Shown here: positions 1-14,231 of the stretch, piece by piece
Position numbering within the stretch: the first letter of the stretch is position 1
Layout: each line of letters starts with the position of its first letter
From: a virus
Taxonomy: Duplodnaviria > Heunggongvirae > Uroviricota > Caudoviricetes
IMG/VR virus record: IMGVR_UViG_3300050011_000047
Span: 78,132 to 92,362 of that record
Strand: one strand, 5' to 3'
Length of the DNA: 14,231 nt
The notes under the pieces: generated by a model
What the model was told of the DNA's origin: nothing
What the model saw: the letters and a program-made list of their open reading frames with translations, nothing else
Databases searched by the model: none
Translations under genes and position numbers: made by a program

Positions 1-22
1 GTCGTCTGTTCGGAGGCGTGGC

Positions 23-226
23 TTGAGACGCAACCGACGCAAGTTCGAGGCGCGCAAAGGACGCAACTCGGTCTACCTCGCGGAGCAGAAGGACGGCACA
101 TTCTCTATGTCGATCTTCTTGCGCTCGCCTACGGGTGTCAACGCATCGTGGTATGCTGCCGGGATGTCAACGTGGGATGAGGCGATCGCGTGCTTGCGCG
201 CGGCTTGGCCGGAGTGTCCGCTATGA
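23..226 (+). CDS. small hypothetical protein (67 aa)
   Basis: TTG start with GGAGG at 12-16; stop overlaps the next start (ATGA 223-226). Confidence 0.65.
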   Translation: MRRNRRKFEARKGRNSVYLAEQKDGTFSMSIFLRSPTGVNASWYAAGMSTWDEAIACLRAAWPECPL

Positions 227-462
227 TCGGGCGCGATTTCTTCCAGCGTGCGACCGATGCGGGCGCAATATCCGATGCTTCGATGAGCGAACTGCTCGAC
301 ACTTGGGGTATCGACATCGAAGCGTTCCTCGGGTGGATGATCGTCTACCGGCAGGCCGTCGTGAACTATGACCTTCCGATGGATGAGGTTGTCTCGTGCG
401 CACTCGTCGCGGGCTTCGAGACGGGCTATCGTGCTAGGCTTGCGGTCGAGGAGGCAGCATGA
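223..462 (+). CDS. small hypothetical protein (79 aa, MIGRDFFQ...)
   Basis: ATGA overlaps at both ends; start at 223 preferred over the track's 190. Confidence 0.7.
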   Translation: MIGRDFFQRATDAGAISDASMSELLDTWGIDIEAFLGWMIVYRQAVVNYDLPMDEVVSCALVAGFETGYRARLAVEEAA

Positions 463-638
463 GCGTACCCACCACCACCAAAGGCAAAACGGTCGGCGTT
501 CTTGGCTACACACGCATCCCCGCGCAGAAGTGCACGATCCCACCCGACGACCACGGGCTCACATGCAACGGCTACCCGTGCGACATGGTGCAGGAGAAGA
601 TGGGGCTTGACGAGTGGGGTAACCGGCTCGATGACTAG
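459..638 (+). CDS. small hypothetical protein (59 aa, MSVPTTTKGK...RLDD) with three Cys and one His
   Basis: Hand-translated, below track cut-off; ATGA coupling, GAGGAGG upstream, TAG 636-638. Confidence 0.7.
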   Translation: MSVPTTTKGKTVGVLGYTRIPAQKCTIPPDDHGLTCNGYPCDMVQEKMGLDEWGNRLDD

Positions 639-641
639 GAT
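636..641 (+). promoter_or_regulatory. -10 element TAGGAT of a leaderless promoter, overlapping the upstream TAG stop
   Basis: TANNNT + 6 nt + ATG648; no SD. Confidence 0.55.
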
Positions 642-647
642 GCGCGC

Positions 648-809
648 ATGACTAGACGGCAGATTGCGCACATTCCGCTCGTAGTGCTCGTGCTTCTGAT
701 TGGGTTGCCGGGCATCATCGTGGCGCTGCTCTATCGCGCGCTCGCGGCGTGGCTCCGTGCCTACATAAGCGCGCTCCGGTACCTACACTCGGTCTACATG
801 CCGTCATGA
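648..809 (+). CDS. small membrane protein (53 aa, MTRRQIAHIPLVVLVLLIGLPGIIVALLYRAL...)
   Basis: Hand-translated; long hydrophobic stretch; leaderless start. Confidence 0.65.
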   Translation: MTRRQIAHIPLVVLVLLIGLPGIIVALLYRALAAWLRAYISALRYLHSVYMPS

Positions 810-948
810 GGCAATCCGCTGCACGACTCTGAGGATGTCGTGCGCGATGGTGATGTGGAGGATTGGAGCCCGTACCACGAGTTCCGCGCCCGTACCGATC
901 CGCCGCCGTGGGGCCGAGGCGAGCGCGAATGATGGAGAGGATTGCACC

Positions 949-1068
949 GTGAGAGGCGAACTGCGCTTGAAGCCATGCCCGGTTTGCAACTACGCCTGCC
1001 TTGACGGCGACTGCACCAACTGCAAGCGCAAGGCAGCAGACGCGTTCGCGCGGTCGTTCGGGCGGTGA
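949..1068 (+). CDS. small zinc-finger-like protein (39 aa; CPVC...CTNC)
   Basis: GTG949 with GGAGAGG at 934-940; two CxxC; GTGA overlap with next gene. Confidence 0.6.
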   Translation: MRGELRLKPCPVCNYACLDGDCTNCKRKAADAFARSFGR

Positions 1069-1364
1069 ACAACCGCTTCACGGACACCGGCCCCTGCGTC
1101 GCGTGCGGGCTTATCCCGATGCCGGTCGAAGGGCTCGTGCATTACGAGCACGTCGATCCTTGCCTTGGCTGCCTCCCTGACGTGACGCAAGCGTGTTGCG
1201 GCCACGGCGGACTCTGCCAACCCTACGTCGTCATCGCGCCCGGCAATGCGCCCGGCACGTTCTCAAACGAACTCGCGCCCGGCACCAAGGAGCGTGTCCT
1301 TCATGACTCGGCGGCGCTTGCCTTCTTCGCGGAGCACGGCGTTGGCGCGGCAACGGCTGCGTAG
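1065..1364 (+). CDS. Cys-rich hypothetical protein (CVAC, DPCLGCLPDVTQACCGHG)
   Basis: Coupled at both ends; DPC-x-G-x-LP-x-V-xx-ACCGHG resembles a motif I recall from uncharacterised phage proteins. Confidence 0.75.
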   Translation: MNNRFTDTGPCVACGLIPMPVEGLVHYEHVDPCLGCLPDVTQACCGHGGLCQPYVVIAPGNAPGTFSNELAPGTKERVLHDSAALAFFAEHGVGAATAA

Positions 1365-1705
1365 TGGCGAGGCCCTCGAAGAAGCAGCAGGAGTGGCGCA
1401 GGGCGGTCAAGCGCGAGGAGCGCCGGTACGCCCGGATCGAACGTGGATTCCTTATGACGCCGTTCCACGCGCTCGCGGATTTCGCCTATGTCGTCTGCGA
1501 GGACTGCGGGCAGGAGCAGTCCGACCGGGACGTTTGCATGATGTGCGGCGGAGAGATTGCAACGACACACCCGCTCCACGATGAGTTCCGCGCCGAACTC
1601 GATAGACTCCGTTCGACGGCGCTCGATAGACTCGATGTATGGCTGATCCCGGACGCATCGACGGACGCATCACCGCTACCCACGGTGCAGCGGCAGCGGG
1701 CCTAG
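1364..1705 (+). CDS. zinc-ribbon hypothetical protein (CEDC...CMMC) with basic N-terminus
   Basis: TAGTG coupling; two CxxC 9 aa apart; 3' end overlaps next gene by 67 nt. Confidence 0.7.
   Translation: MARPSKKQQEWRRAVKREERRYARIERGFLMTPFHALADFAYVVCEDCGQEQSDRDVCMMCGGEIATTHPLHDEFRAELDRLRSTALDRLDVWLIPDASTDASPLPTVQRQRA
1627..1632 (+). promoter_or_regulatory. -10 element TAGACT of a leaderless promoter
   Basis: TAGACT + 6 nt + ATG1639, which is the first possible start in that frame. Confidence 0.55.
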
Positions 1706-2886
1706 GGGGCGCGGGCAGCAGTCAGAAGCCGGATAAGACGTTCGTCTTCGGTGGCACGCGGGACGCCAACGGCAACCCGGTAGCGCCGGGCTTCGCAGGC
1801 AAGCACCCCGCATCCCACAACGTGCCTCCCGCATTCGACGCGGGCGTAGCGCCGGACTCGGGCTCGCTCGATACAGCGGGCTTCACGACTCCCGTCGGCT
1901 TCGTCTTCAACGAGGGCACGGTTGTGATCCCATCGGCGTTGTTCGTCGCGGTTGGCGACATCGCGGATGCGGCGAACGCGGCTTCCACGCAGACGGTGAC
2001 CGCAGTCGCGATCCCTTACGTGACCTTCGACGGCGAGGACGAGAACGATTCTCCGATCCAACTCACGGACTACAGTCTGACGGATGCGTGGGTCACGGAC
2101 TATCAGTGGCTCTCGGACAACGGCTGCGTGTTCAACTCGACCGACCTCGCCAACCTCGATCCGACAACGTGCGCACGCGCGATGGGGCTCACCGGCATAG
2201 ACGAGTGGGGCTTCCTCGGATCGGTGACGCTCGACGGCGGGAACACGCTGCTTGTCTTCTCTACCGTGCCGGGATTCTTCGCGACGGACACGCTCACGCT
2301 CGACGCGACGGCAGTGACCGCCGTGTTCAACACGGGCACGTGGGAGTTCACGGCAATCAACGGCACCGGCCCGTTCACGCAGTACCTCTACACCGAGGAG
2401 GGCGGCGTCAATGCTCCGCTCCCGCTCGACCACGGCGTTCTCATGATCGACGGTTCGTACACCGGCCACAGTGAGATTGCGCTCCTGTGGAGTGACATCA
2501 TTGAGTCAACCCCGTACACGTTCCGCGCAAGCCAGTTCGACCGGCTTACGAACGACGCGGCAGAGTTCATCACCGGGCAAACCGATCCGGTCGGCCTCGA
2601 CCTGATTACAAGCGGGCCGCTCGCGGACATCTGCGTGGATCACGAGATGCGCCTGACTGACTACACGAACGGCTCGTGGATTCAGGGCTTGGTCACGAAC
2701 CTCGAAGCCCTCAACTTCGATCAAGACCTCCCTCCGAACGAGCGCCCGCTCAATGCCATCACCTGCACCTACACGATCACGGCGATGGACTTGTCGGGTT
2801 TGCTCCCCGTTGAGCAGATTCAGTTGAGCGGTGGTAATCCCGTCGAGGGCGACCACATTCTCATCTCGTGGGAGGGCGAGGGATGA
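1639..2886 (+). CDS. 415-aa acidic Asp/Thr/Gly-rich protein of unknown function, possibly virion-associated
   Basis: Long ORF with genome-typical codons; only 3 Lys; no signal peptide; ATGA-coupled to the protease. Confidence 0.8.
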   Translation: MADPGRIDGRITATHGAAAAGLGGAGSSQKPDKTFVFGGTRDANGNPVAPGFAGKHPASHNVPPAFDAGVAPDSGSLDTAGFTTPVGFVFNEGTVVIPSALFVAVGDIADAANAASTQTVTAVAIPYVTFDGEDENDSPIQLTDYSLTDAWVTDYQWLSDNGCVFNSTDLANLDPTTCARAMGLTGIDEWGFLGSVTLDGGNTLLVFSTVPGFFATDTLTLDATAVTAVFNTGTWEFTAINGTGPFTQYLYTEEGGVNAPLPLDHGVLMIDGSYTGHSEIALLWSDIIESTPYTFRASQFDRLTNDAAEFITGQTDPVGLDLITSGPLADICVDHEMRLTDYTNGSWIQGLVTNLEALNFDQDLPPNERPLNAITCTYTITAMDLSGLLPVEQIQLSGGNPVEGDHILISWEGEG

Positions 2887-3602
2887 GTCTTGAAACACGG
2901 ATCAAACTCGGCAACGTAACACCGGCCCGACGACGGCTCGCAGCCGCGACGGGCCAAGTCAGTGTTCCGGTAATCCCGACATCCCACTATTGGGCCACGT
3001 CTTCGGAGAACTTCCCGATGTACGGGAACGTGGCATACGGCGATTGCTCGTGCGCATCGGTGGGGCACATGATCGAGATTTGGTGCGCGAACAACGGCTC
3101 GGTCTACCTGCCGACGCTTGCCGACATCGTGCACGTCTACAAGTCCACACCGGACGCGGGCGGCGGCGGGCGCGATCAGGGAGTCGTGCTCGACTTCGTG
3201 AAGAACCACGGGATCGGCTCAAAGCAACTGCACAAAATCTATTGGCGCGAGGTCGCACCTACGCGCGACTCTGTGCGGCAGACGACCTACTTCCTCGGCG
3301 GCGGCTGCGTCGTGACGCTCAACCTCCCGAACTCGGTCAAGACGGGGCGCACATGGCGCGTCTCCTCGACCAACTCGACGCCCGGCGGCTTCGGCTCGCA
3401 CTCGGTCGATGTCGTCGGCTACGGGCCGAACGGCGTCGTCGTCTGCTCATGGGGGCAACTCATCCCGATGACGTGGGGCTTCTATGACAAGTACGTCGAA
3501 CAGGTGTTCGCGGTGCTCGGGTGGGATTGGATGGGTGCCGATGGCAACTCGCCGCTCGGGCACTCGTGGAAGGAACTGGCCCTACAGTTCGGCATCGAGT
3601 AG
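2883..3602 (+). CDS. papain-like (C1-type) cysteine peptidase
   Basis: GNVAYGDCSCAS (oxyanion Asn then catalytic Cys at papain Q19/C25 spacing), GSHSVDVVGYG (catalytic His), VVCSWG in place of NSWG; start 2883 from ATGA overlap. Confidence 0.75.
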   Translation: MSLETRIKLGNVTPARRRLAAATGQVSVPVIPTSHYWATSSENFPMYGNVAYGDCSCASVGHMIEIWCANNGSVYLPTLADIVHVYKSTPDAGGGGRDQGVVLDFVKNHGIGSKQLHKIYWREVAPTRDSVRQTTYFLGGGCVVTLNLPNSVKTGRTWRVSSTNSTPGGFGSHSVDVVGYGPNGVVVCSWGQLIPMTWGFYDKYVEQVFAVLGWDWMGADGNSPLGHSWKELALQFGIE

Positions 3603-3667
3603 TCCGGCGAATCTGCCCTTGCAAGGCCCGCGCATCTGTACTACTCACACAAGGCGCAGTATTCCGG

Positions 3668-3681
3668 GGAACGTGTGTTCG
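3668..3681. promoter_or_regulatory. LexA/SOS-like box GGAAC-GTGT-GTTCG
   Basis: One mismatch to Gram-positive CGAAC-N4-GTTCG; ends 5 nt upstream of the terS -10. Confidence 0.55.
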
Positions 3682-3686
3682 TCAGG

Positions 3687-3692
3687 TAGACT
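3687..3692 (+). promoter_or_regulatory. -10 element TAGACT of the leaderless terS promoter
   Basis: TAGACT + 6 nt + ATG3699; no usable SD. Confidence 0.65.
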
Positions 3693-3698
3693 TGGGGC

Positions 3699-4145
3699 AT
3701 GGCGACCCCCATCAAGATCACGCCTGAGGTCAAGGAGCGCGTTGCCGAGTTGATCGGCACCATCTGCACGTACCCGGAAGCGGCGGGCGCGGTCGGCATC
3801 TCCGAGCGGTCGGTCACGAACATCATGGCCGATCCCGAGTACCGCAAGAAGATGGAAGACATCAAGGCGGCACGCAACTCCGCGTCCGCGATGTTCGCGG
3901 CGGAGGTTCGGTCGATGATGGCGGCAACCAACGCCGACGGCACACCGGACATGTCGCTCCGCCGAGCCGGACTCGAACTCTACGGCAAGCACCCCGAACT
4001 CGTGGACACGGACATCGACGCGGGCGACGACGCGATGCTGCCGGGCGTAGTGATGCGCTTCCCGCGCGAGAAGTTCGCGGGCACGGAGATTCCCACGTTC
4101 ACTGAGGAAGACCTCGCGTACGTGCCGGTCGAAGCGGAACTCTAG
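3699..4145 (+). CDS. terS: terminase small subunit (N-terminal HTH)
   Basis: HTH-like TYPEAAGAVGISERSVTNIM; 148 aa; TAGTG-coupled to TerL. Confidence 0.75.
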   Translation: MATPIKITPEVKERVAELIGTICTYPEAAGAVGISERSVTNIMADPEYRKKMEDIKAARNSASAMFAAEVRSMMAATNADGTPDMSLRRAGLELYGKHPELVDTDIDAGDDAMLPGVVMRFPREKFAGTEIPTFTEEDLAYVPVEAEL

Positions 4146-5863
4146 TGGCACGGCACCTGTTCGTCGGCCCGCGCGGCGAAGTGCTCGGGATCATGAAGAA
4201 CATGCCGGGCTCGCGCGTGCACGTCGCGTGGACGGAGGAGAAGGCAGACGAGTGGTGGCTCGATCTTGAGCACGAGCAAATCCCTACCGATGTCGGCGTA
4301 GCGATCAGCGATCACGGGCTCGCGATGCTCGTGGGCTCGGGCACGTCGGGTGACGTGGGCGAGATGGAATCGGTGATGCCACCGAACGGTGACACCGAGG
4401 ATGTGCAACCGATCGGTTACAAACTCGGCCCGCTCGGGCAGCGGTTCATCCGGTGCTCGCACCCCGTCTACGGGTTCCGCGAGTTCCTCAACGTCTGGAA
4501 GTTCCTCGACCAAGACCACGGCATCATCCGCGTGTTCGGTGAGTCGTTGTGGCAGGGGCAGGAGATTGCCGTGCAGGCCGTGCAGTTGGAGGCGTGGATT
4601 TACTTCCTCAAGGCGCGGCAGATTGGCTACACAACCATCTGCATCGCCTACGACGCATGGGTGGCGCGGTTCCGCACACCGAACGCTCGCGTGCACCTTG
4701 TCTCGCGCACGGAGACGCTCGCGAAGGACTCACTGCTCAAGCCGATCAAGTCAGGCATTCAGCGGCTCCCGGCGGAGATGCAACTCCCGTGGATCGAGGA
4801 CACTACGACATATTTCACGCTCGACGCAGGGCCGGGCGACCGTCGGCACGTGCATGCCTACGCGGCGAAGGAGCCGGGGCGAGGCGAGACGTGTAACCAC
4901 CTGCATCTTGACGAGTGGGCGGCAATGGCGAAGACGGCTCCGTCGCTCCCGGCGGAGGTTTGGGCCTCAGCCGAACCGACCATCTCGAAGGCGGGCGGCA
5001 CCGCACACATCCTGACGACCGGCGTCGGCCCTGAGGGCTACTACGCGGAGACGTGGCACGCGGCGGTCGAGAACCGTGGGCAGTTCTTCGCCTGCTTCAT
5101 CGGCGCACAAGACTCGCGCCCGGACTACACGAAGCAGTGGCTCGCGGACAAAAAGCGCGAGATGAACGATGACGCTCGCTTCGCGCACGAGTACCCGCAG
5201 ACATGGCAGGACGCGCTCGCGGGCACAGGTGACACGTTCTTCACGGGCATCTCCCTCGACGCGGTAGGCGAGTACGCGCGTGGCTCAGTGCAGGCCGGAG
5301 CCCCAAGGCTGCGCGGCAAGGCGATGTTCATGGACAAGCGCACCGGCAAGTTGAAGAAGCGCAAGTACGTCAAGGCGTGGGATATCGCGGGGCCGGGCGA
5401 GAAGGCGGACGCCGTGGTCGGCACCGTGCTCGACGTGACCGAGGAAGTGTGGGACGTGGTGGAGCAGGAGGTCTACTACGGCGAGGAGTACCCGGTGACG
5501 GCGATGCGCATTCAGTGGATGGACGAGCGGTGGCCGGGGCTCAACGTGATCGAGGACAACGCGGCGGGCGGTGCGGTGCGTGCGTTCGTGACCGGCATCC
5601 CCGAGGATCGGCTCATCGGCTTCTCGACCAACCGCATCACGAAGCCGCTCATCCTCTCCGAGTTGAAGTTCGGACTCGAAGCGCAGTCGATCAAGTGGAA
5701 TCCGCGCGAGTGCCCGGTGCTTGATGCGCAGATGCGCACGTACAAGTTGGCGGACGAAAACATCAAGCAGGACACGGTGATGAGTTTGGCGTTTTGTGTT
5801 CATCATGGCCCCGATGCTAGAGAAGAATCAGGGGGGCGGATTCTTACAGTCGCACGAATCTGA
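4145..5863 (+). CDS. terL: terminase large subunit (T4 gp17 / Terminase_6-like)
   Basis: Walker A LKARQIGYTT, Walker B LHLDEWA, coupling motif ILTTG, nuclease acidic motifs KAWDIAG, IEDN, KQDTVMSLA. Confidence 0.95.
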   Translation: MARHLFVGPRGEVLGIMKNMPGSRVHVAWTEEKADEWWLDLEHEQIPTDVGVAISDHGLAMLVGSGTSGDVGEMESVMPPNGDTEDVQPIGYKLGPLGQRFIRCSHPVYGFREFLNVWKFLDQDHGIIRVFGESLWQGQEIAVQAVQLEAWIYFLKARQIGYTTICIAYDAWVARFRTPNARVHLVSRTETLAKDSLLKPIKSGIQRLPAEMQLPWIEDTTTYFTLDAGPGDRRHVHAYAAKEPGRGETCNHLHLDEWAAMAKTAPSLPAEVWASAEPTISKAGGTAHILTTGVGPEGYYAETWHAAVENRGQFFACFIGAQDSRPDYTKQWLADKKREMNDDARFAHEYPQTWQDALAGTGDTFFTGISLDAVGEYARGSVQAGAPRLRGKAMFMDKRTGKLKKRKYVKAWDIAGPGEKADAVVGTVLDVTEEVWDVVEQEVYYGEEYPVTAMRIQWMDERWPGLNVIEDNAAGGAVRAFVTGIPEDRLIGFSTNRITKPLILSELKFGLEAQSIKWNPRECPVLDAQMRTYKLADENIKQDTVMSLAFCVHHGPDAREESGGRILTVARI

Positions 5864-5873
5864 GGGTTTTTCC

Positions 5874-5902
5874 TTGACGGCTGCACATTTCTTTGCTACG
5901 AT
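5874..5902 (+). promoter_or_regulatory. sigma70/SigA-type promoter for the FkbM gene
   Basis: TTGACG (5874-5879), 17 nt, TG-c-TACGAT (-10 at 5897-5902). Confidence 0.8.
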
Positions 5903-5915
5903 GTATCCGTACACA

Positions 5916-5947
5916 ATCTACGCCATCTGCATCAACGAGGCGTAGAT
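5916..5947 (+). promoter_or_regulatory. 5'UTR hairpin covering the RBS and start codon
   Basis: ATCTACGCC (5916-5924) / GGCGTAGAT (5939-5947), perfect 9 bp; 3' arm takes part of GAGG and the AT of ATG5946. Confidence 0.55.
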
Positions 5948-6740
5948 GATCGAAGTGCCCACCCCTCGCGGAAGCACGGCGCGGTTCGAGTGCCGGGACG
6001 GTACGAGCGATGCCCAACTCGCCACGTACATCCTGACGACGGACGAGTACGCGCTAGCAGGGCGCTTCCTACAGGGGTGGGCACTCGATGTCGGCGCACA
6101 TATCGGCATCGTGTCCATCGCACTCGCGCTCGACAACCCCGGCCTCTGCATCCTTGCGCTAGAGGCCGTACCCGAAAACGCCAATGCACTGACACGGAAC
6201 GTCGCACTCAATGGGCTCGTAGGTCGAGTGCGTGTGGAGTGTGTTGCAGCCTCACGGCCCGGTATAGAGTTCGTGGACATCGACTACGGTTACATCCCGG
6301 ACGAAGACGAGTCCGAGCACCCGGACTATCAGGATCACACGTTCATCGGCAACACGTACCTCGGAGAAGGTAAGCGGGCAACACGCGCCGCACGAGTACC
6401 GGCTACCTCTCTGAGTGCAGTGCTCGACCGGCACGGGATCGAAGAAGTGTCGGCGCTCAAGATCGACTGCGAAGGCTGCGAGTGGGACTTCCTACAAGAC
6501 GCTGCCGTCGCACGAGTGCAGACGATCTTCGGGGAGACGCACGGCATCACGGCGGTCGAGGAGCATCTACGTGCTGCGTCGCACGAGGCGGCATGGCGAC
6601 CGGGCGCTCATCGTTGCAACTGCCAACGCGATCATCTTCACCGGCTGCTCGATACGACGCATGATGTTTCGTTCGGTGAGGTCTTCGCATTCGAGGCACA
6701 ACACAGAGAGGCCCCGAAGGGCCTCTCTGACGCTCGCTGA
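5946..6740 (+). CDS. FkbM-family SAM-dependent methyltransferase
   Basis: ALDVGAHIG, LEAVPEN, LKIDCEGCEW, IFGETH motifs. Confidence 0.9.
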   Translation: MIEVPTPRGSTARFECRDGTSDAQLATYILTTDEYALAGRFLQGWALDVGAHIGIVSIALALDNPGLCILALEAVPENANALTRNVALNGLVGRVRVECVAASRPGIEFVDIDYGYIPDEDESEHPDYQDHTFIGNTYLGEGKRATRAARVPATSLSAVLDRHGIEEVSALKIDCEGCEWDFLQDAAVARVQTIFGETHGITAVEEHLRAASHEAAWRPGAHRCNCQRDHLHRLLDTTHDVSFGEVFAFEAQHREAPKGLSDAR

Positions 6741-6845
6741 CCGTCACCACTGGACGACCTACTGTGCTCATCCCTCTGTGCGGGCGAGTCGCGATCCGGT
6801 GTCCAAACCGGCCTAGGTGCGTGGTTATCCGTGGCGCTGCGTGGA

Positions 6846-6858: not shown

Positions 6859-7101
6859 GTGGTCTTCCTTCACTGGATCGAGCAGTTCTTCCATCCCGGC
6901 GAGTTGCGCACGCCTCACGGCGGCTATTGGTTTTGGAGCGGCATCGGCTCGGGCTCGCCTCTGTTCATCATGGCGCTCGGTTGGTGGTACAAGCACAACT
7001 GCCACGTGCACCGCTGCCCGCGCCTCTCCTGGCACCCGCACCCCGAGCACGGCCACCCGGTGTGCAAGCGCCACCATCCGCACGACCCTGCTACACTCTG
7101 A
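6859..7101 (+). CDS. small membrane protein with His/Cys-rich tail (HNCHVHRC...VCKRHH)
   Basis: YWFWSGIGS, hydrophobic segment, then HNCH-x3-C...C-xx-HH; resembles a family I recall from actinophages. Confidence 0.75.
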   Translation: MVFLHWIEQFFHPGELRTPHGGYWFWSGIGSGSPLFIMALGWWYKHNCHVHRCPRLSWHPHPEHGHPVCKRHHPHDPATL

Positions 7102-7166
7102 GAACATGTACGCCACGCAGCACCCGCAGACGCAGCATCAACCCGCCTAGGGCGGGCATAGTTCTC

Positions 7167-7238
7167 TGCGGGGTCTTGCTAATGGTAGGCGGACGGACTC
7201 TGAATTCGTAGGTGAAGGTTCGACTCCTTCCCCCGCAG
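7167..7238 (+). tRNA. tRNA-Gln(CTG), no encoded CCA
   Basis: Acceptor TGCGGGG/CCCCGCA + G73; anticodon arm ACGGA-CTCTGAA-TTCGT; T arm GAAGG-TTCGACT-CCTTC; D stem weak. Confidence 0.85.
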
Positions 7239-7246
7239 TTAGGGTC

Positions 7247-7269: not shown

Positions 7270-7610
7270 TGCCTAGAAAAGATCAAGAGGACAGAAACGC
7301 CTATCAGCGGAAGTGGTATTCGGAGAACAAGCAGGTCTACTACGACAAGAACAAGAGACGGCGTAACGAGTGTAGAGACTTCATCCGTAAATACTTGCTC
7401 GAACACCCGTGCGTGGACTGCGGGGAAGCGGACATTGTTGTCCTAGACTTCGATCATGTAAGAGGCGTGAAGATCAAGGAAGTGACGACAATGGCGCAGC
7501 AGGGGTACAGCATCAAACGGATAGTGAAGGAGATAGAAAAGTGTGAAGTTGTGTGCGCCAATGACCACAGACGGCGCACCAAGAAAAGACGACAATCGGG
7601 CGTGGTATAG
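7269..7610 (+). CDS. HNH endonuclease (free-standing, homing-endonuclease-like)
   Basis: CVDCG...LDFDH...EIEKCEVVCANDHRRRT; A-rich compared with neighbours; last 15 nt overlap tRNA-Pro. Confidence 0.85.
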   Translation: MPRKDQEDRNAYQRKWYSENKQVYYDKNKRRRNECRDFIRKYLLEHPCVDCGEADIVVLDFDHVRGVKIKEVTTMAQQGYSIKRIVKEIEKCEVVCANDHRRRTKKRRQSGVV

Positions 7611-7666
7611 CGGTAACACACGTGCTTTGGGGGCATGAGTCGGAGGTTCGAGTCCTCCCGCCCGGA
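7596..7666 (+). tRNA. tRNA-Pro(TGG), no encoded CCA
   Basis: Acceptor TCGGGCG/CGCCCGG + A73; anticodon arm CGTGC-TTTGGGG-GCATG; T arm GGAGG-TTCGAGT-CCTCC. Confidence 0.9.
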
Positions 7667-7727
7667 TGGGTCGCAAGGCTAGAGACGAGCCCTCCGGTTG
7701 TGAGCCGATGGAGCCGGCGACCCTTCG

Positions 7728-7736
7728 TGGTACACT
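7728..7736 (+). promoter_or_regulatory. extended -10 (TG-g-TACACT) leaderless promoter for the lysin operon
   Basis: -10 at 7731-7736 + 6 nt + ATG7743. Confidence 0.65.
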
Positions 7737-7742
7737 CGGTGC

Positions 7743-7991: not shown

Positions 7992-8473
7992 TGGCGATCC
8001 TTCGGCCCAAGCATCTCTCCAAGGCAGGCGCGGCATTCATCGGCGCGTTCGAGGGCCTGCGCCTCACGCCGTACAACGATGCGGCGGGCCACGCCACCGT
8101 CGGCTACGGGCACCTGCTTCACTACGGGCCGGTCACGCAGCACGACCTCGACAAGTATCGCGGCTTCACCACGGGCGAGGCCGTCGCGCTCCTACAGACG
8201 GACGCCGAGAAGGCAGCAGTTGCCGTCCGCGCGATCACTCCGGCGATCACGAATCAGGCGCGCTTCGACGCGCTCGTGTCCATCGCGTTCAACTGCGGAA
8301 CCGGCGTGCTCGATCCACGCTCATCGCTCGGCGCGGAACTCCGCAAGCCGGGACGCGGCAAGGCTGCCGATGCGTTCCTGCTCTACGACCATGCGGGCAA
8401 CGTCGTGCTCGCGGGATTGCAGCGTCGGCGCGAGGCCGAGCGCAAGTTGTTCCTCACCGGCAAGTACGCCTAG
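7991..8473 (+). CDS. GH24 lysozyme / endolysin (160 aa, catalytic domain only)
   Basis: FEGLRLTPYNDAAGHATVGYGH (E-x8-D-x5-T), FDALVSIAFNCG, GLQRRREAERKLF; start 7991 from TAGTG overlap. Confidence 0.92.
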   Translation: MAILRPKHLSKAGAAFIGAFEGLRLTPYNDAAGHATVGYGHLLHYGPVTQHDLDKYRGFTTGEAVALLQTDAEKAAVAVRAITPAITNQARFDALVSIAFNCGTGVLDPRSSLGAELRKPGRGKAADAFLLYDHAGNVVLAGLQRRREAERKLFLTGKYA

Positions 8474-8733
8474 TCCCTCACACGGATACGCAGGTGCCGG
8501 ACGCCCCACGCGCGTGCGCGTGAGCACGAGCCCATCCATAGGTCGATGTGGTAGCCCTGCACCGCCGAGCCCGTGTCGAGGGCTCTCCCGCGCCCGTAGC
8601 CGGGCACGAAGATCCGCATGGGCTCGCGCATGATCCGGGGATCGACGGCTATCGCGCCGTAGTGGACGGGCTCGCCTGAGGCGGTGTGGCCCGTGAGGCA
8701 GTAGGCCGTCGCGAGGACATGCAAGAACCGCAT
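8470..8733 (-). CDS. stand-alone 3D-domain (MltA-like lytic transglycosylase) protein
   Basis: ATAY..GHTASG, IAVDP, GYG...ALDTG, HIDLW, WG; all three Asp present; no signal peptide. Confidence 0.88.
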   Translation of the reverse strand: MRFLHVLATAYCLTGHTASGEPVHYGAIAVDPRIMREPMRIFVPGYGRGRALDTGSAVQGYHIDLWMGSCSRARAWGVRHLRIRVRD

Positions 8734-8738
8734 CTACA

Positions 8739-8759
8739 AGACTAGCACGCGGCTAGAAT
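8739..8759. promoter_or_regulatory. back-to-back promoters: minus-strand TG-c-TAGTCT (8739-8744, leaderless for the 3D gene) and plus-strand TAGAAT (8754-8759)
   Basis: 5 nt from the minus -10 to ATG8733; CTAGC-N5-GCTAG palindrome (8742-8756) touches both -10s. Confidence 0.55.
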
Positions 8760-8791
8760 CCTTGGTATCCGAACAATCGAGAGGAGGCTAC

Positions 8792-8872
8792 ATGCCTACA
8801 TGGTTGCTCGTTGCGCTCATCGCATGCGCCACCCTGTTTGTGTGGCTCGTGCTCATCCCGGCGCTTCACTAG
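8792..8872 (+). CDS. 26-aa single-TM peptide MPTWLLVALIACATLFVWLVLIPALH
   Basis: Hand-translated; strong SD GAGGAGG at 8781-8787; upstream -10; wholly hydrophobic. Confidence 0.7.
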   Translation: MPTWLLVALIACATLFVWLVLIPALH

Positions 8873-8891
8873 GGATAGGGGGCCGTCGCCC

Positions 8892-8920
8892 TAGACACGG
8901 GGCGTCGGCCCTGCTACAGT
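8892..8920 (+). promoter_or_regulatory. sigma70/SigA-type promoter for the small-gene operon
   Basis: TAGACA (8892-8897), 17 nt, TG-c-TACAGT (-10 at 8915-8920). Confidence 0.75.
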
Positions 8921-8950
8921 CCGACCAACCTACAAGTTGGGAGGATTGTA

Positions 8951-9040
8951 ATGGACGACATTCTGGACATGAACCGGCGCTTCTGCGTGAAGATCCTCAC
9001 CAACTCGCTCGATGTGTGGTTTGGAGGCTCGGAAATATGA
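8951..9040 (+). CDS. 29-aa peptide MDDILDMNRRFCVKILTNSLDVWFGGSEI
   Basis: GGAGG SD upstream; ATGA coupling to next gene. Confidence 0.6.
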   Translation: MDDILDMNRRFCVKILTNSLDVWFGGSEI

Positions 9041-9171
9041 GAGTCACAGGCAGGGAACTACGCACGCTCGCGGATGCGGCGTGGGAAGCCGATCAGCGCG
9101 ACATCGCGGAGGCGCTACACGACCTCGCGCGGAAGGTCGAGGCCGACGAGCAGTTGGCGGAGACGGCGTAA
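9037..9171 (+). CDS. 44-aa hypothetical protein
   Basis: GGAGG at 9023-9027; ATGA and TAATG overlaps. Confidence 0.65.
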   Translation: MRVTGRELRTLADAAWEADQRDIAEALHDLARKVEADEQLAETA

Positions 9172-9347
9172 TGGCGAAGACGACGAACGAGGCCGTGCAG
9201 GGAATGCGCTCCGGCAACAAGCGGGGCTCGAACAAGGGCATCCTCACGCGCAAGAAGGAGCGCAAGCGCGAGGAGGCCGAGGCCCGCAACGCACGCACGC
9301 AGCCGGGCAACCGGCGCAGTGCTCGGCGTGCTACCCTCACGCCATGA
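9171..9347 (+). CDS. 58-aa very basic peptide, possibly nucleic-acid binding
   Basis: TAATG and ATGA overlaps; Lys/Arg-rich (TRKKERKREE, RRSARR). Confidence 0.6.
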   Translation: MAKTTNEAVQGMRSGNKRGSNKGILTRKKERKREEAEARNARTQPGNRRSARRATLTP

Positions 9348-9562
9348 CGATGACTCGCACCCACACGCACACCGTAGTGCGGTTCGAGGTCGTGACCAAG
9401 GGCGGTGTGTTCGAGGTCAAGGCGAAGGATCAGCGGGCGCTCGATGACGCCATCGAGCGCGGGCTCATCTTCGACGCCGAGGAATCGTTCGCCCGTGCCG
9501 AAGGGTGGCGCGTGAACATGGCCCACGTCATCGCCTACCGCACCAAGGCCGTCCGAGACTGA
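9344..9562 (+). CDS. 72-aa hypothetical protein
   Basis: ATGA coupling; typical codon usage. Confidence 0.7.
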   Translation: MTMTRTHTHTVVRFEVVTKGGVFEVKAKDQRALDDAIERGLIFDAEESFARAEGWRVNMAHVIAYRTKAVRD

Positions 9563-9570
9563 GGGCAACT

Positions 9571-9619
9571 TGTGGTAACCTTCCGGGAGACAACTTGAAT
9601 CCCGAGGGGAGGTTACACA
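9571..9619 (+). promoter_or_regulatory. extended -10 promoter (TG-g-TAACCT) embedded in an anti-SD hairpin
   Basis: -10 at 9576-9581; GTAACCTTC (9575-9583) pairs with GGAGGTTAC (9608-9616); CGGGA/TCCCG inner stem. Confidence 0.6.
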
Positions 9620-9621
9620 CA

Positions 9622-9837
9622 ATGGCAACAAAGAAGAAGACGCAGGTGGAGGTCATTCTCGCGACACTGGCCCGGCGCAAGTCAGGCTTCACGGACGCGG
9701 AGTTGATCGAGGCCACCGGCATCGAGTACGCCGACACGATCCGCGCGACGCTCAAGCGTCAGGGCAAGGTCAAGGCGGTCGGCACGAAGAAGAACGTCAC
9801 CACGAATCGCACGCTCAAGACGTGGGGCGTGGCGTAA
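9622..9837 (+). CDS. winged-HTH DNA-binding protein (71 aa)
   Basis: Strong SD; VILATL...GFTDAELIEATGIEYADTIRATLKRQGKV followed by a beta-hairpin wing. Confidence 0.7.
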   Translation: MATKKKTQVEVILATLARRKSGFTDAELIEATGIEYADTIRATLKRQGKVKAVGTKKNVTTNRTLKTWGVA

Positions 9838-9856
9838 GCCCGTCCTATCCACCACG

Positions 9857-9886
9857 ACGCGAGGCCGGGGAACCGGCCTTTCGCGT
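9857..9886 (+). terminator. strong GNRA-capped hairpin, likely terminator or processing site
   Basis: ACGCGA-GGCCGG-GGAA-CCGGCC-TT-TCGCGT just after the wHTH stop; no clean U tract. Confidence 0.5.
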
Positions 9887-9942
9887 ATCTTCACCCTTTT
9901 GGGTGATTCACAGCGGTAGTGAATATGCCCGATACTGTGAAT

Positions 9943-10104
9943 ATGGAAAAGACAGAGACACCCAACACACCCCTTCTCGACTGCGCCGCAGTTCTAGCGA
10001 AACTCGACGCAGACGAGGAACAGGCGCGCTACCTCCGCGCCGAGCGCGGCGAGTTCGCGCTCCCGAAGATCAACCTCTCTGACCCCTGGGGCCACGAGAG
10101 ATGA
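9943..10104 (+). CDS. hypothetical protein (about 53 aa; start could be 9919, 9925 or 9943)
   Basis: Open frame with ATGA coupling to next gene. Confidence 0.55.
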   Translation: MEKTETPNTPLLDCAAVLAKLDADEEQARYLRAERGEFALPKINLSDPWGHER

Positions 10105-10328
10105 CGGACGGCTTCGAGAATCTCATGCGTGCGGTCAACGCCATCCCGATGCACGCGCCGGTCACCTACTACCACGCCGACGGCACAGTGGTCGTGACCT
10201 ACTTCCCTGCCGAGTACGAGTACCTGCTCGCATTCGCGGATCGGTACGGCGTTGAGCAGGAGTTCGAGTTCGTCACACCCGAGGAACTCGTCTCGCGCTC
10301 GATGGCCGAAGGTTGGATACGCGCATGA
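10101..10328 (+). CDS. 75-aa hypothetical protein
   Basis: ATGA coupling; typical codons. Confidence 0.7.
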   Translation: MTDGFENLMRAVNAIPMHAPVTYYHADGTVVVTYFPAEYEYLLAFADRYGVEQEFEFVTPEELVSRSMAEGWIRA

Positions 10329-10396
10329 AGCAGCATCGCAGCACCCGCGCACGTGCCGTGCAGTTGGGCGGCTTCGCGATGGAAGGAGGTACGACC

Positions 10397-10564
10397 ATGC
10401 ACATCCTCATGACCGAGGCACAGGCGAAGGTGATCGGCGGACTCAGGTTCGACGGAAACCTCGTCATCGAGCAGGACGGCGAGAGCATCACGCTCACCTA
10501 CGCCAAGGACGGCAACTTGCTTTTCCAGCGCGTAGCACCGGACGGCGACATCGAGAACGGCTAA
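10397..10564 (+). CDS. 55-aa hypothetical protein (alternative start 10325)
   Basis: AAGGAGGT SD before ATG10397; convergent stop overlap with the minus-strand gene. Confidence 0.65.
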   Translation: MHILMTEAQAKVIGGLRFDGNLVIEQDGESITLTYAKDGNLLFQRVAPDGDIENG

Positions 10565-11310
10565 CGAAAACGGAAGCCGAAGCGGCGTAGCCACTTCCGC
10601 GTGTAGCAGAGGCCGTTGTCACAGAAGTCGCTCGTCTTACCGCACGGGCACTGCATCGTCGGTTCCTTGAAGGGCGTCTCGTCCGCACGTGCGGCGAGTG
10701 CTTCGAGGTCGATCACAGGCTCGGGCTTCGGGGCCTCGACCACCACGAGCGGGTTCTCGATCCGTTCGAGCGCAGCACTCACGCCCTCAGCGAAGGCGAG
10801 CAGTCCGGCGGCAAGATCATCTAGGCGCGCCCGCAGGTCTTCCTGGCCCTTGAGAATCTCGTCGGCATCGTGCGACCGCACTGCGAGCGGCGCGGGCCGT
10901 CGGCGGCGCTGTACGGGCTCCTCGTCGGACTCGGGCAGGAACGGCGGCGGGTCTTCGTCGCTCGGCTCCCCAAGGTCGAACTCCAACTCCTCCTCGGGCT
11001 CCGGCTCCTCGCCTACCTCGAACGGCTCGTCCGCGTCGGCGGCTTCGCGCGTGCCCGGCTGCGTGCCGGTGTAGTCCGTGTAGTCCATCTCGATGACCTC
11101 ATCCGACGCGGGCGCACGTCCGGCCCGGCCACGGAAGCGGGAGGCCATGTCGGCCCGTTCGAGCGAGGCGGCATCGAGCCCGCCTCCGCCACGGCCCGCG
11201 ATCACGTGCTCACCGGGCTTCATCGGATCGACCACGCCCTCGCGGATCAGGGCCTTTCGGCGCGCGGCGATGCGAGCGGTCAAGTCTTGGCTAGGTGCGT
11301 CGAGTCCCAC
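10561..11310 (-). CDS. 249-aa protein with acidic Pro-rich disordered middle, coiled coil and C-terminal Cys cluster
   Basis: Long ORF; leaderless -10 TAGACT at 11317-11322 (minus), 6 nt from GTG11310. Confidence 0.8.
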   Translation of the reverse strand: MGLDAPSQDLTARIAARRKALIREGVVDPMKPGEHVIAGRGGGGLDAASLERADMASRFRGRAGRAPASDEVIEMDYTDYTGTQPGTREAADADEPFEVGEEPEPEEELEFDLGEPSDEDPPPFLPESDEEPVQRRRRPAPLAVRSHDADEILKGQEDLRARLDDLAAGLLAFAEGVSAALERIENPLVVVEAPKPEPVIDLEALAARADETPFKEPTMQCPCGKTSDFCDNGLCYTRKWLRRFGFRFR

Positions 11311-11319
11311 GGTTCAAGT

Positions 11320-11883
11320 CTACCGGAAGACGACAAGTTTGCCGCCGGAATCGCCGCCACCGTAGATCAGGCTCGTGGGGCCTCGCTGCCGGAGCACGTC
11401 CACGAAGCGGTGAACCTCGGTGCCCGGCACGTCGCGCGTCACCGCGTCATCGAGCACGATCAGCCCGCCGTCGCGCACGAGCGGCGCGTACATCTCGAAG
11501 TCCGAGACGACGGCCTCGAACCCGTGATCGGCGTCGATGTAGAGGAAGTCGATCCACAGGCCGTCGAGCGCGTGCAAGACCTGCCGGTAGGTGTCCGGCT
11601 CATAGGTCTTCCCGTAGATGACGATGGCCCCGTCGGCTTCGAGCGGATCGAGTCCGGCCCGCGTGCGCTCGGAGTCCTCCGCCTCCATGCCGATCAGGAA
11701 CGAGGGGTCGAAGGCGTAGCGCCACACCGCGAGGCTCGCGCCCGCGTGCGACCCAAGTTCGAGCACGACGTGCGGGCGACCATAGCGCGGGACGTTGCAG
11801 GCGAGGTTGATGACGTGCTCAAACTCCCAACGGGCGGAGTAGGTGGCCCCGTGGGTTGTGCACCAATCATCGAGCGCGGACAT
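11320..11883 (-). CDS. class I SAM-dependent methyltransferase (Methyltransf_24-like)
   Basis: VLELGSHAGAS; DFLYIDADHGFEAVVSDFEMYAPLVRDGGLIVLDD. Confidence 0.9.
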   Translation of the reverse strand: MSALDDWCTTHGATYSARWEFEHVINLACNVPRYGRPHVVLELGSHAGASLAVWRYAFDPSFLIGMEAEDSERTRAGLDPLEADGAIVIYGKTYEPDTYRQVLHALDGLWIDFLYIDADHGFEAVVSDFEMYAPLVRDGGLIVLDDAVTRDVPGTEVHRFVDVLRQRGPTSLIYGGGDSGGKLVVFR

Positions 11884-11926
11884 GCCTCACAGGGTACAGG
11901 AAGCGCCGAGCCGCTACAATCGGGGC
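11884..11926. promoter_or_regulatory. overlapping divergent leaderless promoters
   Basis: Minus TACCCT (11891-11896) + 7 nt + ATG11883; plus TACAAT (11915-11920) + 6 nt + ATG11927. Confidence 0.65.
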
Positions 11927-13219
11927 ATGAGGGTCATCATGGACGAGAAGACCGACGGGACGCGCACCTTCCAGTTCGGAAGCGCGGGCGAGCCCTACGT
12001 GTTCGAGCCCGGCGACGCCGACTCGACCGCAATCGCGTTCACCAAGGCCGTGAATGACGGCATCGAGTCCGGCGAGGAAATCGAGGGCGAGGCAGCCATC
12101 GCGGTAGCCGAAGTCCTCAAGGCGACCGGCGACCTTGCGTGGCCTTCGGACGGCGGCTATCAGGCACTCCTCACCGCCGTGCAGGACGCGCTGCCGAAAC
12201 TGCCGCGCGTCAACTCCGGCCCGAACGAGCCGTACTCCTACGTGTACGTGCAGGACATCGCACTCGATGCGGCGCACGCGCTCGTCTGTGGGTACGACCT
12301 CGACGGCGACGGCGACTCGGACACCTACGTCGTGCCGTTCACGGTTCACGGTACGGGCGCTGACCTGAGCGTGATCGTGGGCGACAAGTCCACGTGGGTC
12401 GAGGTCGAACAGGAGTTCGTGGAGAAGGCCGGACGCATGTTCTCGGGCAGGAACCTCGGCGCAATGCAGGAGGCGTATACCGTGCTCGGCAACCTCATCG
12501 CGGCAGCAGACAAGCCGGACAAGGATGAGCACACGGACGAGACGCTCAAGGGCACGGGCAACGAGGACATGTCCTACACCGTGACGAAGGCGAACGCGGC
12601 GATGCGCTACACGCTCGGCCCGCTCTACGCGCCCGCGCGCAAGGATGCGCACGGCGAGTACATCGAGGACGACACGCTGCACAAGTCACTCCATGAGTTC
12701 GTGCGCGACTCCGCCGACAACGGTCGTCGGATCAACGTGCAGCACGGCGACAAGGGCGACTTGCAGTGCGGCGAGTGGGTCGAGGCCGTTCGTTGGCCCT
12801 ACGACCACACGATCACGATGAAGTCCGCCGACGGCACAAGCCACGAGGTCGAGATGCCTGCGGGCACGGTCTACCTCGGCGTCGTGTGGGACGAGGAGTA
12901 TTGGGACACCGCGAAGTGTGCACCCAAGGGCCTCAACGGATACTCCCTCGGCGGGCGCGCGATCAAGGTGCGCGGCGACGGCGAGACGGAGACGCTCAAG
13001 GACATGGGCTACAAGGTTGCGAAGTCCGCGCCGACGAAGGACGAAATCGAGCGCAGCACCGAGATTGACCTCGCGGTCGAGGTCGGTAGGGCCGAGGCCG
13101 AGGCGCGCGTGCATGCTTCACTCTCTGAGCGCCTGCTCGGTGTCCTCAAGGATCACGCCAAGTCCGGCGTCACGATCAACGAGCACTCGGCTCCGGGGCT
13201 CGAAGACCTCGTGGAGTAG
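11927..13219 (+). CDS. XkdF-like prohead serine protease with long N-terminal region (430 aa)
   Basis: YTLGPLYAP..KDAHGE...INVQH...GEWVE...GTVYLGVVW...W...GLNGYSLGGRA; start 11927 chosen from the leaderless -10 rather than the track's 11843. Confidence 0.8.
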   Translation: MRVIMDEKTDGTRTFQFGSAGEPYVFEPGDADSTAIAFTKAVNDGIESGEEIEGEAAIAVAEVLKATGDLAWPSDGGYQALLTAVQDALPKLPRVNSGPNEPYSYVYVQDIALDAAHALVCGYDLDGDGDSDTYVVPFTVHGTGADLSVIVGDKSTWVEVEQEFVEKAGRMFSGRNLGAMQEAYTVLGNLIAAADKPDKDEHTDETLKGTGNEDMSYTVTKANAAMRYTLGPLYAPARKDAHGEYIEDDTLHKSLHEFVRDSADNGRRINVQHGDKGDLQCGEWVEAVRWPYDHTITMKSADGTSHEVEMPAGTVYLGVVWDEEYWDTAKCAPKGLNGYSLGGRAIKVRGDGETETLKDMGYKVAKSAPTKDEIERSTEIDLAVEVGRAEAEARVHASLSERLLGVLKDHAKSGVTINEHSAPGLEDLVE

Positions 13220-13229
13220 GGTTCCCGCG

Positions 13230-13247
13230 ATGGAGCCGCAAGCCTAA
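13230..13247 (+). CDS. putative leaderless 5-aa upstream ORF (MEPQA)
   Basis: TAGGGT (13217-13222) + 7 nt + ATG; TAATG overlap with the collagen start. Confidence 0.4.
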   Translation: MEPQA

Positions 13248-14231
13248 TGGAAGTGAACCGTCCCCGCAAGGGGCTTACGTCTGAGGCGCGCGAGAAACTT
13301 GTAGATCAGATTGCCGATGCGGCTGCGCTCAAGGCGGCGGCTGCGCTCGGTGACGTGCTCAAGGACGTGCGCGCCGAGCCCGGCAAGCCGGGGTTGCGCG
13401 GCGCAGACGGCAACGACGGCCCGCCCGGCCCGAAGGGCGCAGACGGGCGCGACGGCGAGCCCGGCGAACCCGGCCCTACCGGCCCCGAAGGCCCGCCCGG
13501 CCCGAAGGGCGATACCGGCCCGAGCGGCGCGAGCGGCCCGAGCGGCCCGGCGGGTAAGGGCGGGCTCTCGATCTTCGGCGGCGGCGGCGGTAAGGCGCTC
13601 ATTCCACCGTTCCGTCCGGCGGGTACAACGCTCGTTCTCTCCGCCAAGGACGGAGACGATCCTCGCGCATGGGTAGCGCACGACATCAACGACATCGTGA
13701 CCGGCGGTGCAGGTGGTACCGGCGGCACAGGAGCGCAGGGCGCACCGGGCATAGACGGAGCCATCGGGCCTACAGGCCCGGCAGGCGCAGTAGGCCCCAC
13801 CGGAGCGGGCGGCGCAGCGGGAGCCGACGGCGCAGCAGGCCCGAGCGGCCCTACAGGCCCGGCGGGCGGCACAGGAGGCACAGGAGCAGCCGGTGCGGTA
13901 GGTGCAACCGGAAGTGCGGGCGGAACGGGAGGCACGGGCGCAGCAGGCGGCACAGGCCCACAAGGGGCAGGAGGTCTTGACGGTAACCCCGGTTCCGTCG
14001 GAGGCACAGGAGGCACAGGAGGCACAGGCTCGGCGGGTTCCGCAGGCGGTACGGGTGGGACGGGAGCCGCAGGAGGCATCGGCGCGACTGGCCCCACAGG
14101 TGGTACAGGAGGCACAGGCTCGGCGGGTTCCGCAGGCGGTACGGGTGGGACGGGAGCCGCAGGAGGCATCGGCGCGACTGGCCCCACAGGTGGTACAGGA
14201 GGCACAGGCTCGGCGGGTTCCGCAGGCGGTA
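13247..14231 (+). CDS. collagen-like (Gly-X-Y) protein, likely head or tail fibre; 3' end truncated by the window
   Basis: Hand-translated (absent from track as no stop): MEVNRPRKG..., about 20 charged GXY triplets, a short non-collagen linker, then about 59 uninterrupted GXY triplets rich in GGT/GPT/GAT/GSA. Confidence 0.9.
   Translation, partial: MEVNRPRKGLTSEAREKLVDQIADAAALKAAAALGDVLKDVRAEPGKPGLRGADGNDGPPGPKGADGRDGEPGEPGPTGPEGPPGPKGDTGPSGASGPSGPAGKGGLSIFGGGGGKALIPPFRPAGTTLVLSAKDGDDPRAWVAHDINDIVTGGAGGTGGTGAQGAPGIDGAIGPTGPAGAVGPTGAGGAAGADGAAGPSGPTGPAGGTGGTGAAGAVGATGSAGGTGGTGAAGGTGPQGAGGLDGNPGSVGGTGGTGGTGSAGSAGGTGGTGAAGGIGATGPTGGTGGTGSAGSAGGTGGTGAAGGIGATGPTGGTGGTGSAGSAGG
14015..14231 (+). 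repeat. perfect 90-bp tandem repeat (about 2.4 copies, runs off the window)
   Basis: Copies start at 14015, 14105, 14195; unit TGGTGSAGSAGGTGGTGAAGGIGATGPTGG; 9-bp GGCACAGG(A/C) x3 at 14003-14029. Confidence 0.95.

Follow-up and report, generated by a model that had tools for sequence, protein, structure and literature searches.

Older work on restriction-site avoidance in phages reportedly includes that of Sharp (1986) and of Rocha et al. (2001). In a survey of about 4000 phages, sites were completely or almost completely eliminated in about a tenth of the genomes (Rusinov et al. 2018, PMC6286503), and the avoidance concerned almost only orthodox Type II sites, most of them palindromic; it was absent for systems of Types I and IIG and rare for Type III (PMC6286503). 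Here we describe the avoidance of the word CCAG and its reverse complement CTGG in the genome of an uncultured tailed phage (IMG/VR record IMGVR_UViG_3300050011_000047), centered on the final 14,231 bp of its 92,362-bp contig (positions 78,132 to 92,362, hereafter the window). Like the avoidance catalogued in the survey, it is found in a double-stranded DNA phage that lost sites by silent substitutions, it is site-specific and it differs between related phages (PMC6286503). Unlike there, the word is a short asymmetric tetranucleotide with flank rules, and the panel of avoided sites is unusually broad, with 53 known specificities below 0.1 of expectation and the 4-bp site AGCT absent from 92 kb. 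The phenomenon itself is textbook; the unusual points are how broad the panel is, that a 4-bp site is missing altogether and that a short asymmetric word is strongly avoided.

The window contains exactly 4 CCAG and 11 CTGG, one of them within the terminase gene terL, as counted in a preliminary description made from the letters of the window alone. That description had expected about 170 occurrences at a G+C content of 66%; the expectation we computed is 169, while the true G+C content of the window is 64.4% (63.4% for the contig). A maximal-order Markov model, which corrects for trimer frequencies, predicted 60 occurrences against the 15 seen (z = -7.2). After this correction CCAG/CTGG was still an outlier: among the 136 strand-merged tetranucleotide classes in the window, only AGCT ranked lower. 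Across the whole 92,362-bp genome, 132 occurrences (45 CCAG and 87 CTGG) were seen against 1077 expected from composition or 447 from the Markov model (z = -18.7). The observed-to-expected ratio for CCAG is 0.12 here, whereas 96 other loci of at least 10 kb gave values between 0.35 and 1.79. One-base variants of CCAG stand at 0.30-1.93, and other short asymmetric Type IIS words (CCTC, CCGC, GGATC, GAGTC, GACGC, GGATG, GCATC, GGTGA, GAAGA and GTCTC) at 0.82-1.37.

We then compared these counts with a codon null, in which synonymous codons were shuffled within each gene so that protein sequence and codon usage were kept. On the sense strand of the coding sequences, CCAG was found 42 times against 303 and CTGG 71 times against 341 (z about -21 each), giving 113 against 642 for coding DNA in total (sum of CCAG and CTGG). 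The coding sequences of the window hold 13 against 87.0 ± 6.4 (z = -11.6), with a minimum of 68 in 300 shuffles. Genome-wide, the depletion extends to each of the six frame and orientation classes, and intergenic DNA holds 19 occurrences against 120 expected. Since both orientations, all frames and non-coding DNA are affected, the pressure acts at the DNA level, as had been proposed. The genes, 128 in total, were called with a simple script based on GC3 and codon scores; the Markov and intergenic results are independent of these calls. The deficit was confirmed as real, highly significant and enforced by synonymous choice.

This choice can be followed codon by codon. The ten T-ending codons that had been put forward as examples of recoding were all found in place and in frame, including the following two:

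2988..2993, plus strand: TAT-TGG, a rare T-ending Tyr codon before Trp, where TAC-TGG is avoided

4757..4762, plus strand: ATT-CAG in terL, in frame, where ATC-CAG is avoided

The codon-pair bias (NNC versus NNT before CAG or TGG), for which a check had been suggested, is present genome-wide, and all codon-context figures given here refer to the genome. NNC codons make up 7.8% before TGG against 46% before the remaining T-starting codons, and NNT codons 19% against 6%. Gln after a C-ending codon tends to be CAA, as described earlier (63% CAA after NNC against 15-26% after other endings), and Leu before G is rarely CTG, which accounts for 1.9% of the Leu codons there. Similarly low are CCA before G (0.6% of Pro codons), NCT before GG (2.5%) and NCC before AG (1.7%). 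At 17 aligned positions of terL, where a relative has CCAG, CTGG or AGCT, this phage encodes the same amino acids with different codons.

Two tRNA genes were found in the window with ARAGORN, which detected no other tRNAs and no transfer-messenger RNA:

7166..7239, plus strand: tRNA-Gln(CUG)

7596-7666 of the window: tRNA-Pro(UGG)

Both tRNAs read common codons and not the forced, rarer CAA, NNT, TTG and CTT, so that the cost of recoding is not visibly compensated; tRNA-Gln(CUG) in particular reads CAG, not the CAA that avoidance forces, and therefore offers no compensation.

CCAG is not the outstanding feature of this genome; rather, it is AGCT at zero together with the elimination of about 50 known enzyme sites. 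AGCT does not occur in 92,362 bp, where 216-311 copies were expected (z = -24), and is at 0 against 217 in the codon shuffle; all 141 Lys, Glu and Gln codons that precede CTN end in A. Our codon-shuffle scan covered all 4- to 6-mers and the 614 sites of the REBASE copy in Biopython, 523 of which were testable. Fifty-three of these 523 known sites fall below 0.1, and 21 of the 32 testable 6-bp palindromes below 0.15. GGWCC is found 0 times against 221 in coding sequences. CCGCGG, GCCGGC, CTCGAG, GTCGAC, CCCGGG, GGGCCC, GAGCTC, CTGCAG, GGATCC, AGGCCT, ATCGAT and TCCGGA are likewise at 0, while CGGCCG, GGCGCC, RGATCY, CGATCG and GACGTC are at or below 0.05. Asymmetric sites that are nearly lost comprise CTCTTC (EarI), GGTCTC (BsaI), CTGAAG, CACCTC and GAGATC. 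Interrupted palindromes (half-site, N1-10, reverse complement) stand at 0.90-1.04 overall, and those eliminated are mostly the sites of AlwNI, Tth111I, XmnI, BsaBI, PflMI, EcoNI, AhdI and BstXI, along with CCCNGGG, GGGNCCC and TCGNCGA, for which Biopython's REBASE copy holds no enzyme. The 4-bp palindromes other than AGCT, AATT, TTAA, TATA and ATAT are near normal (0.79-1.25), and degenerate sites such as CYCGRG occur at normal frequency. This fine specificity, which matches real enzyme sites, is the signature of restriction-driven selection, and only restriction explains the pattern of the panel. A generic avoidance of palindromes was rejected: CCAG is non-palindromic, and interrupted palindromes are lost only at specific sites.

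Several further words are scarce. TCGNCGA (2 against 81), CACCTC/GAGGTG (2 against 67) and GAGATC/GATCTC (3 against 64) have no enzyme in Biopython's REBASE copy and, with CCCNGGG and GGGNCCC, are candidates for new specificities. The SgrAII site of Streptomyces griseus, CGAGATC, is at 0 against 27. Runs of five C or G (CCCCC/GGGGG) number 43 against 233, and the hexamer run 1 against 56, for which slippage avoidance or another site are possibilities.

We infer, with a probability of about 0.8, that the CCAG/CTGG deficit is restriction-site avoidance under sequence-specific host nucleases of the restriction-modification type; one nuclease may have been responsible, or several. Unmodified short sites in entering phage DNA would be cut by such nucleases, and each site lost by a silent change would raise the survival of infection. 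The silent substitutions would then be fixed, and sites would vanish both from intergenic DNA and, by the choice of synonymous codons and codon pairs, from genes. This process may have removed about 50 specificities, with CCAG as the one short asymmetric word among them.

The 15 sites that survive in the window are the following, where contexts of CTGG are given on the minus strand:

243..246, plus strand: CCAG, context CTTCCAGC, with K (G or T) at -1 and -2

2532..2535, plus strand: CCAG, context AAGCCAGT, with K at -1 and T at +1

3576..3579, minus strand: CTGG, context GGGCCAGT, of the spared class KKCCAGT

4495..4498, minus strand: CTGG in terL, read as GTC-TGG (Val-Trp) and kept in a relative with 85% terL identity

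6750..6753, minus strand: CTGG, intergenic, context CGTCCAGT

6873..6876, minus strand: CTGG, context GATCCAGT

7028..7032: CCTGG, a CCWGG site, with CTGG at 7029

8963..8966, minus strand: CTGG, intergenic, context TGTCCAGA

9667..9670, minus strand: CTGG, context GGGCCAGT

10085..10089: CCTGG, with CTGG at 10086, the sole survivor in the window with C at -1 of CCAG

10525..10528, plus strand: CCAG, context TTTCCAGC

10842..10846: CCTGG, with CTGG at 10843

11971..11974, plus strand: CCAG, context CTTCCAGT

14088..14091, minus strand: CTGG in the collagen-like fibre gene, context GGGCCAGT

14178..14181, minus strand: CTGG, in which the context GGGCCAGT is repeated

These survivors include three CCTGG and no CCAGG. 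Relative to the null, A or C at position -1 gives ratios of 0.04-0.07 and G or T 0.21-0.30, while at position +1 T gives 0.42 and the other bases 0.08-0.14; all eight one-base flank classes are therefore depleted, although unequally (0.04-0.42). A two-class flank search separated KKCCAGT, which is not depleted (34 against 37.8), from all other contexts, which are at 0.13, and any context with M (A or C) at -1 has a ratio of 0-0.12. In the flank test, bases outside positions -2 to +1 had no influence, and a long or bipartite motif is thereby excluded. Survivors are not clustered in particular genes, as in recent acquisitions for example, but are evenly spread with no gene enriched. Escape in the manner of Type III systems by strand bias is excluded as well, since survivors occur in both orientations (45 and 87), interleaved along the genome.

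A known specificity related in sequence is CCWGG, the site of EcoRII/BstNI-type enzymes, which is linked to Dcm. As in CCWGG avoidance, CCAGG/CCTGG is depleted here (30 against 212 in coding sequences); unlike there, CCAGH is equally depleted (83 against 429), and CCWGG is not the determinant. The earlier statement that CCWGG alone is insufficient holds. As the sole cause, an EcoRII/Dcm-type specificity was rejected because CCAGA (9/113), CCAGC (23/193) and CCAGT (51/124) are depleted too, and GCCAGG is among the better-tolerated contexts (21 against 67). The complete loss of AGCT resembles restriction of the AluI type and is confined to the clade that purges CCAG. In contrast to CCAG, however, AGCT is a separate palindromic site. 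The two words overlap only in CCAGCT, so that AGCT avoidance cannot cause the CCAG deficit. More generally, the avoidance of AGCT, CCWGG or palindromes was rejected as the source of the deficit, as these account only for the CCAGCT and CCAGG subsets. AluI originates from an actinobacterium, Arthrobacter luteus.

To place the phage, we searched the INPHARED phage set with terL DNA and protein, which returned nothing closer than 24% identity, and single-protein scans of the genome and viral contigs yielded no relatives. Relatives were recovered with a terL profile built from 24 homologues, and they come from peat, wetland and soil metagenomes. An identical phage (100% terL identity) is present in two other assemblies. 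The gene on which these comparisons are based is:

4145..5863, plus strand: terL, with a single CTGG, zero CCAG and zero AGCT

A 1.9-kb contig carries a terL that is 85% identical in protein and 82% in DNA. It differs at 34% of four-fold sites, yet its terL retains that one CTGG and lacks AGCT, which indicates that the purge is older than the split and is being maintained. The terL orthologues at 63% identity contain 7-12 CCAG/CTGG and 6-8 AGCT. In four contigs of this 63% clade AGCT is normal (57/66, 68/68, 62/74 and 26/40) and CCAG does not stand out once Markov-corrected (z = -4.1 to +2.3); like this phage, they are devoid of GGWCC, CCGCGG, GCCGGC, CTCGAG, CTGCAG, GTCGAC and CAGCTG. MCCAGH is nearly absent in three of the four (3 against 229), whereas TCCAG is in excess in the same contigs (163 against 116), showing that a narrower CCAG-containing specificity exists on its own. 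Among more distant IMG/VR relatives the avoided subset differs from one to the next, or is empty, and the depletion of CCAG is specific to the lineage.

Two prophage-like relatives, in contigs of 267 kb and 996 kb, have normal CCAG and AGCT and only GGWCC is low, as in host chromosomes. Their weak avoidance fits the weaker avoidance reported for temperate phages. The phage described here carries a gene for a 206-amino-acid tyrosine recombinase despite its strong avoidance.

The CCAG signal depends on context and is probably layered. An older layer would consist of MCCAG(H) avoidance, common to the sister clade, and a newer one, specific to the clade of this phage, would have extended to most other CCAG contexts while sparing KKCCAGT. 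We favour such a target, layered or composite, which is no less likely than a single CCAG-core system.

A number of points weigh against restriction-site avoidance as the cause of the deficit. As many as 132 CCAG/CTGG survive in the genome while AGCT and GGWCC are at zero. Contexts flanked by K range from 0.03 to 0.74 (chi-square about 66, 7 degrees of freedom), a heterogeneity that a single clean 4-bp specificity would not predict. A look-up of the motif in REBASE had been proposed, and Biopython's copy contains 14 longer CCAG-containing sites, but no plain 4-bp CCAG enzyme. It is atypical for a short asymmetric word to be strongly avoided, because avoidance in the survey was nearly confined to orthodox Type II sites (PMC6286503).

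The CCAG-containing enzymes of the REBASE copy include BseYI (CCCAGC), HbaII (GCCCAG), BmrI (ACTGGG), BpmI/GsuI (CTGGAG), BspNCI (CCAGA), RdeGBII (ACCCAG), Nal45188II (ACCAGC), RflFIII (CGCCAG) and BsrI (ACTGG). Most of these known sites are at 0-0.19 of the null here, and their union could build the signal; the BsrI word ACTGG, equivalent to CCAGT, shows the weakest depletion of the contexts (0.41). Our full-text literature search returned no described CCAG-specific restriction enzyme, with CCAG appearing only as a Sporosarcina motif and as a product of very-short-patch (VSP) repair, and a literature search on site avoidance in actinophages and Streptomyces phages returned nothing specific.

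Within restriction-site avoidance, a narrower possibility is a single host nuclease or defence system with a 4-bp asymmetric CCAG core and flank-dependent activity. The depletion of all eight one-base flank classes and the lack of any flank effect past -2 to +1 are in its favor. In addition, a methylome table of Sporosarcina lists a CCAG modification motif as previously seen and flags it as 'not unique' (PMC5930826), which suggests that a CCAG-specific modification exists. The sparing of KKCCAGT, the wide range among K-flanked contexts, the sister phages that avoid MCCAGH but not TCCAG, and the lack of a 4-bp CCAG enzyme in Biopython's REBASE copy all argue against it, and we regard a single system as somewhat doubtful. 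The preliminary description had proposed escape from a host system that recognises a CCAG-core site. Selection at the DNA level is borne out by the lineage- and site-specific depletion, whereas the single system is unproven in view of the spared KKCCAGT and the MCCAGH avoidance of the sisters. It could tentatively be pictured as an uncharacterised defence in uncultured soil Actinomycetota that would be strongest with A or C at -1, blind to KKCCAGT, active on single sites in either orientation and potent enough for an 8-fold purge.

A mutational or repair bias, in which a process of the lineage destroys CCAG/CTGG through, for example, deamination of methylated C or VSP-like repair, is very improbable. 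In some bacteria, 5-methylcytosine deamination and VSP repair are known to skew the usage of short words (PMC4687349). Here, however, the words that C-to-T changes would produce show no enrichment (0.58 for TCAG and 0.30 for CTAG), the neighbours in excess being CGAG, CAAG and GCAG, and the complete loss of dozens of unrelated palindromes is predicted by no mutation process. The purge is also absent from the phage relatives at 63% identity, and the 85% relative retains it in spite of 34% divergence at four-fold sites.

The chromosomes of the candidate host lineage argue in the same direction. The best cellular matches to the terL profile (35-47% identity) were found in Actinomycetota metagenome-assembled genomes (MAGs), namely Gaiellaceae, Thermoleophilia and unclassified Actinomycetota/Actinomycetes. 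Two of the matching terL genes lie inside the 267-kb and 996-kb contigs, and hence in prophages. A sortase of the phage, matched in Pfam, also points to Actinomycetota hosts. From each of five MAGs, 19-80 kb of chromosome was analyzed, as representative of a candidate lineage and not of an identified host. CCAG stands at 0.55-0.81 of composition in the five and is slightly over-represented by the Markov model in three of them (z = +4.7 to +6.6), while AGCT is in 1.8- to 2-fold excess. The lack of a CCAG/AGCT deficit argues, for this candidate lineage, against a lineage-wide mutational bias. GGWCC, on the other hand, is low in these chromosomes (0.31-0.45 of composition), with Markov z of -6 to -12 in the three MAGs tested in this way (Gaiellaceae, Thermoleophilia and Actinomycetes, at 0.31-0.37 of composition). 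Together with the family-wide loss of GGWCC in the phages, this fits widespread GGWCC restriction in the lineage.

We give similarly little credence to self-avoidance, in which a nuclease encoded by the phage would cut CCAG (and AGCT) in host DNA and its own genome would be site-free. A cognate methyltransferase would then be unnecessary, and the phage does encode several nucleases, a PD-(D/E)XK protein as well as HNH and GIY-YIG-type (T5orf172/MUG113) genes, along with many proteins without known function. These nucleases, however, look like recombination and homing enzymes, and neither Pfam nor PADLOC matched a restriction-endonuclease family among the scanned phage proteins. The roughly 50 avoided sites are beyond what a phage could encode enzymes for, and parts of this panel recur as a mosaic among the relatives. 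The PADLOC matches were rejected as a defence system, since they consist of generic SNF2-helicase matches (ZorD, DpdE and DrmD models) and one orphan methyltransferase. A single DNA methyltransferase was detected in the genome, 1.7 kb ahead of the window:

75444-76406 of the genome, minus strand: Dam-type DNA methyltransferase (PF05869)

With this single DNA methyltransferase, and with neither base-hypermodification nor restriction-endonuclease genes among the scanned proteins, site avoidance appears to be the main anti-restriction cover of the phage. The frequency of GATC is normal, and the GATC-containing 6-mers RGATCY, CGATCG, TGATCA and GAGATC are eliminated.

Avoidance of a CRISPR (clustered regularly interspaced short palindromic repeats) protospacer-adjacent motif (PAM), to whose credit PAM depletion in phages is reportedly a weak effect, or a translational codon-pair or RNA-level constraint, can be set aside as highly implausible: an 8-fold loss of a 4-mer is far above reported PAM effects, fewer PAMs bring a merely proportional benefit, and the equal depletion in both orientations, all frames and intergenic DNA argues against a translational or RNA cause.

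Under restriction-site avoidance, the missing sites would form a record of the nucleases met by the phage lineage, here exceptionally rich and from never-cultured hosts. This record includes words that no enzyme of the REBASE copy recognises (the CCAG core, CACCTC, GAGATC and TCGNCGA), and sister phages hold different subsets of it. It could be used to predict which restriction systems uncultured Actinomycetota of peat and soil possess, to pair phage contigs with host MAGs through methylation motifs in long-read metagenomes, and to nominate new specificities for enzyme discovery. If a CCAG-core defence did exist, the phage genome would be a readable imprint of the specificity of an unknown enzyme, flank preferences included.

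The genes of the window include terS, terL, an FkbM-type methyltransferase, a prohead protease domain and the collagen-like fibre gene. Outside the window, the phage has genes for a family-A DNA polymerase, an SNF2 helicase, a primase, a sigma factor, an FtsH-like protease, the sortase, the Dam-type DNA methyltransferase and the tyrosine recombinase. At 10561-11883 two minus-strand calls compete with a plus-strand open reading frame (ORF): the gene caller favours the minus-strand ORFs 10561-11310 and 11320-11883 over a plus-strand ORF of 395 amino acids (10870-12057). The equivalent minus-strand genes in one relative (17157-18401 of its contig) have glycan-type methyltransferase domains.

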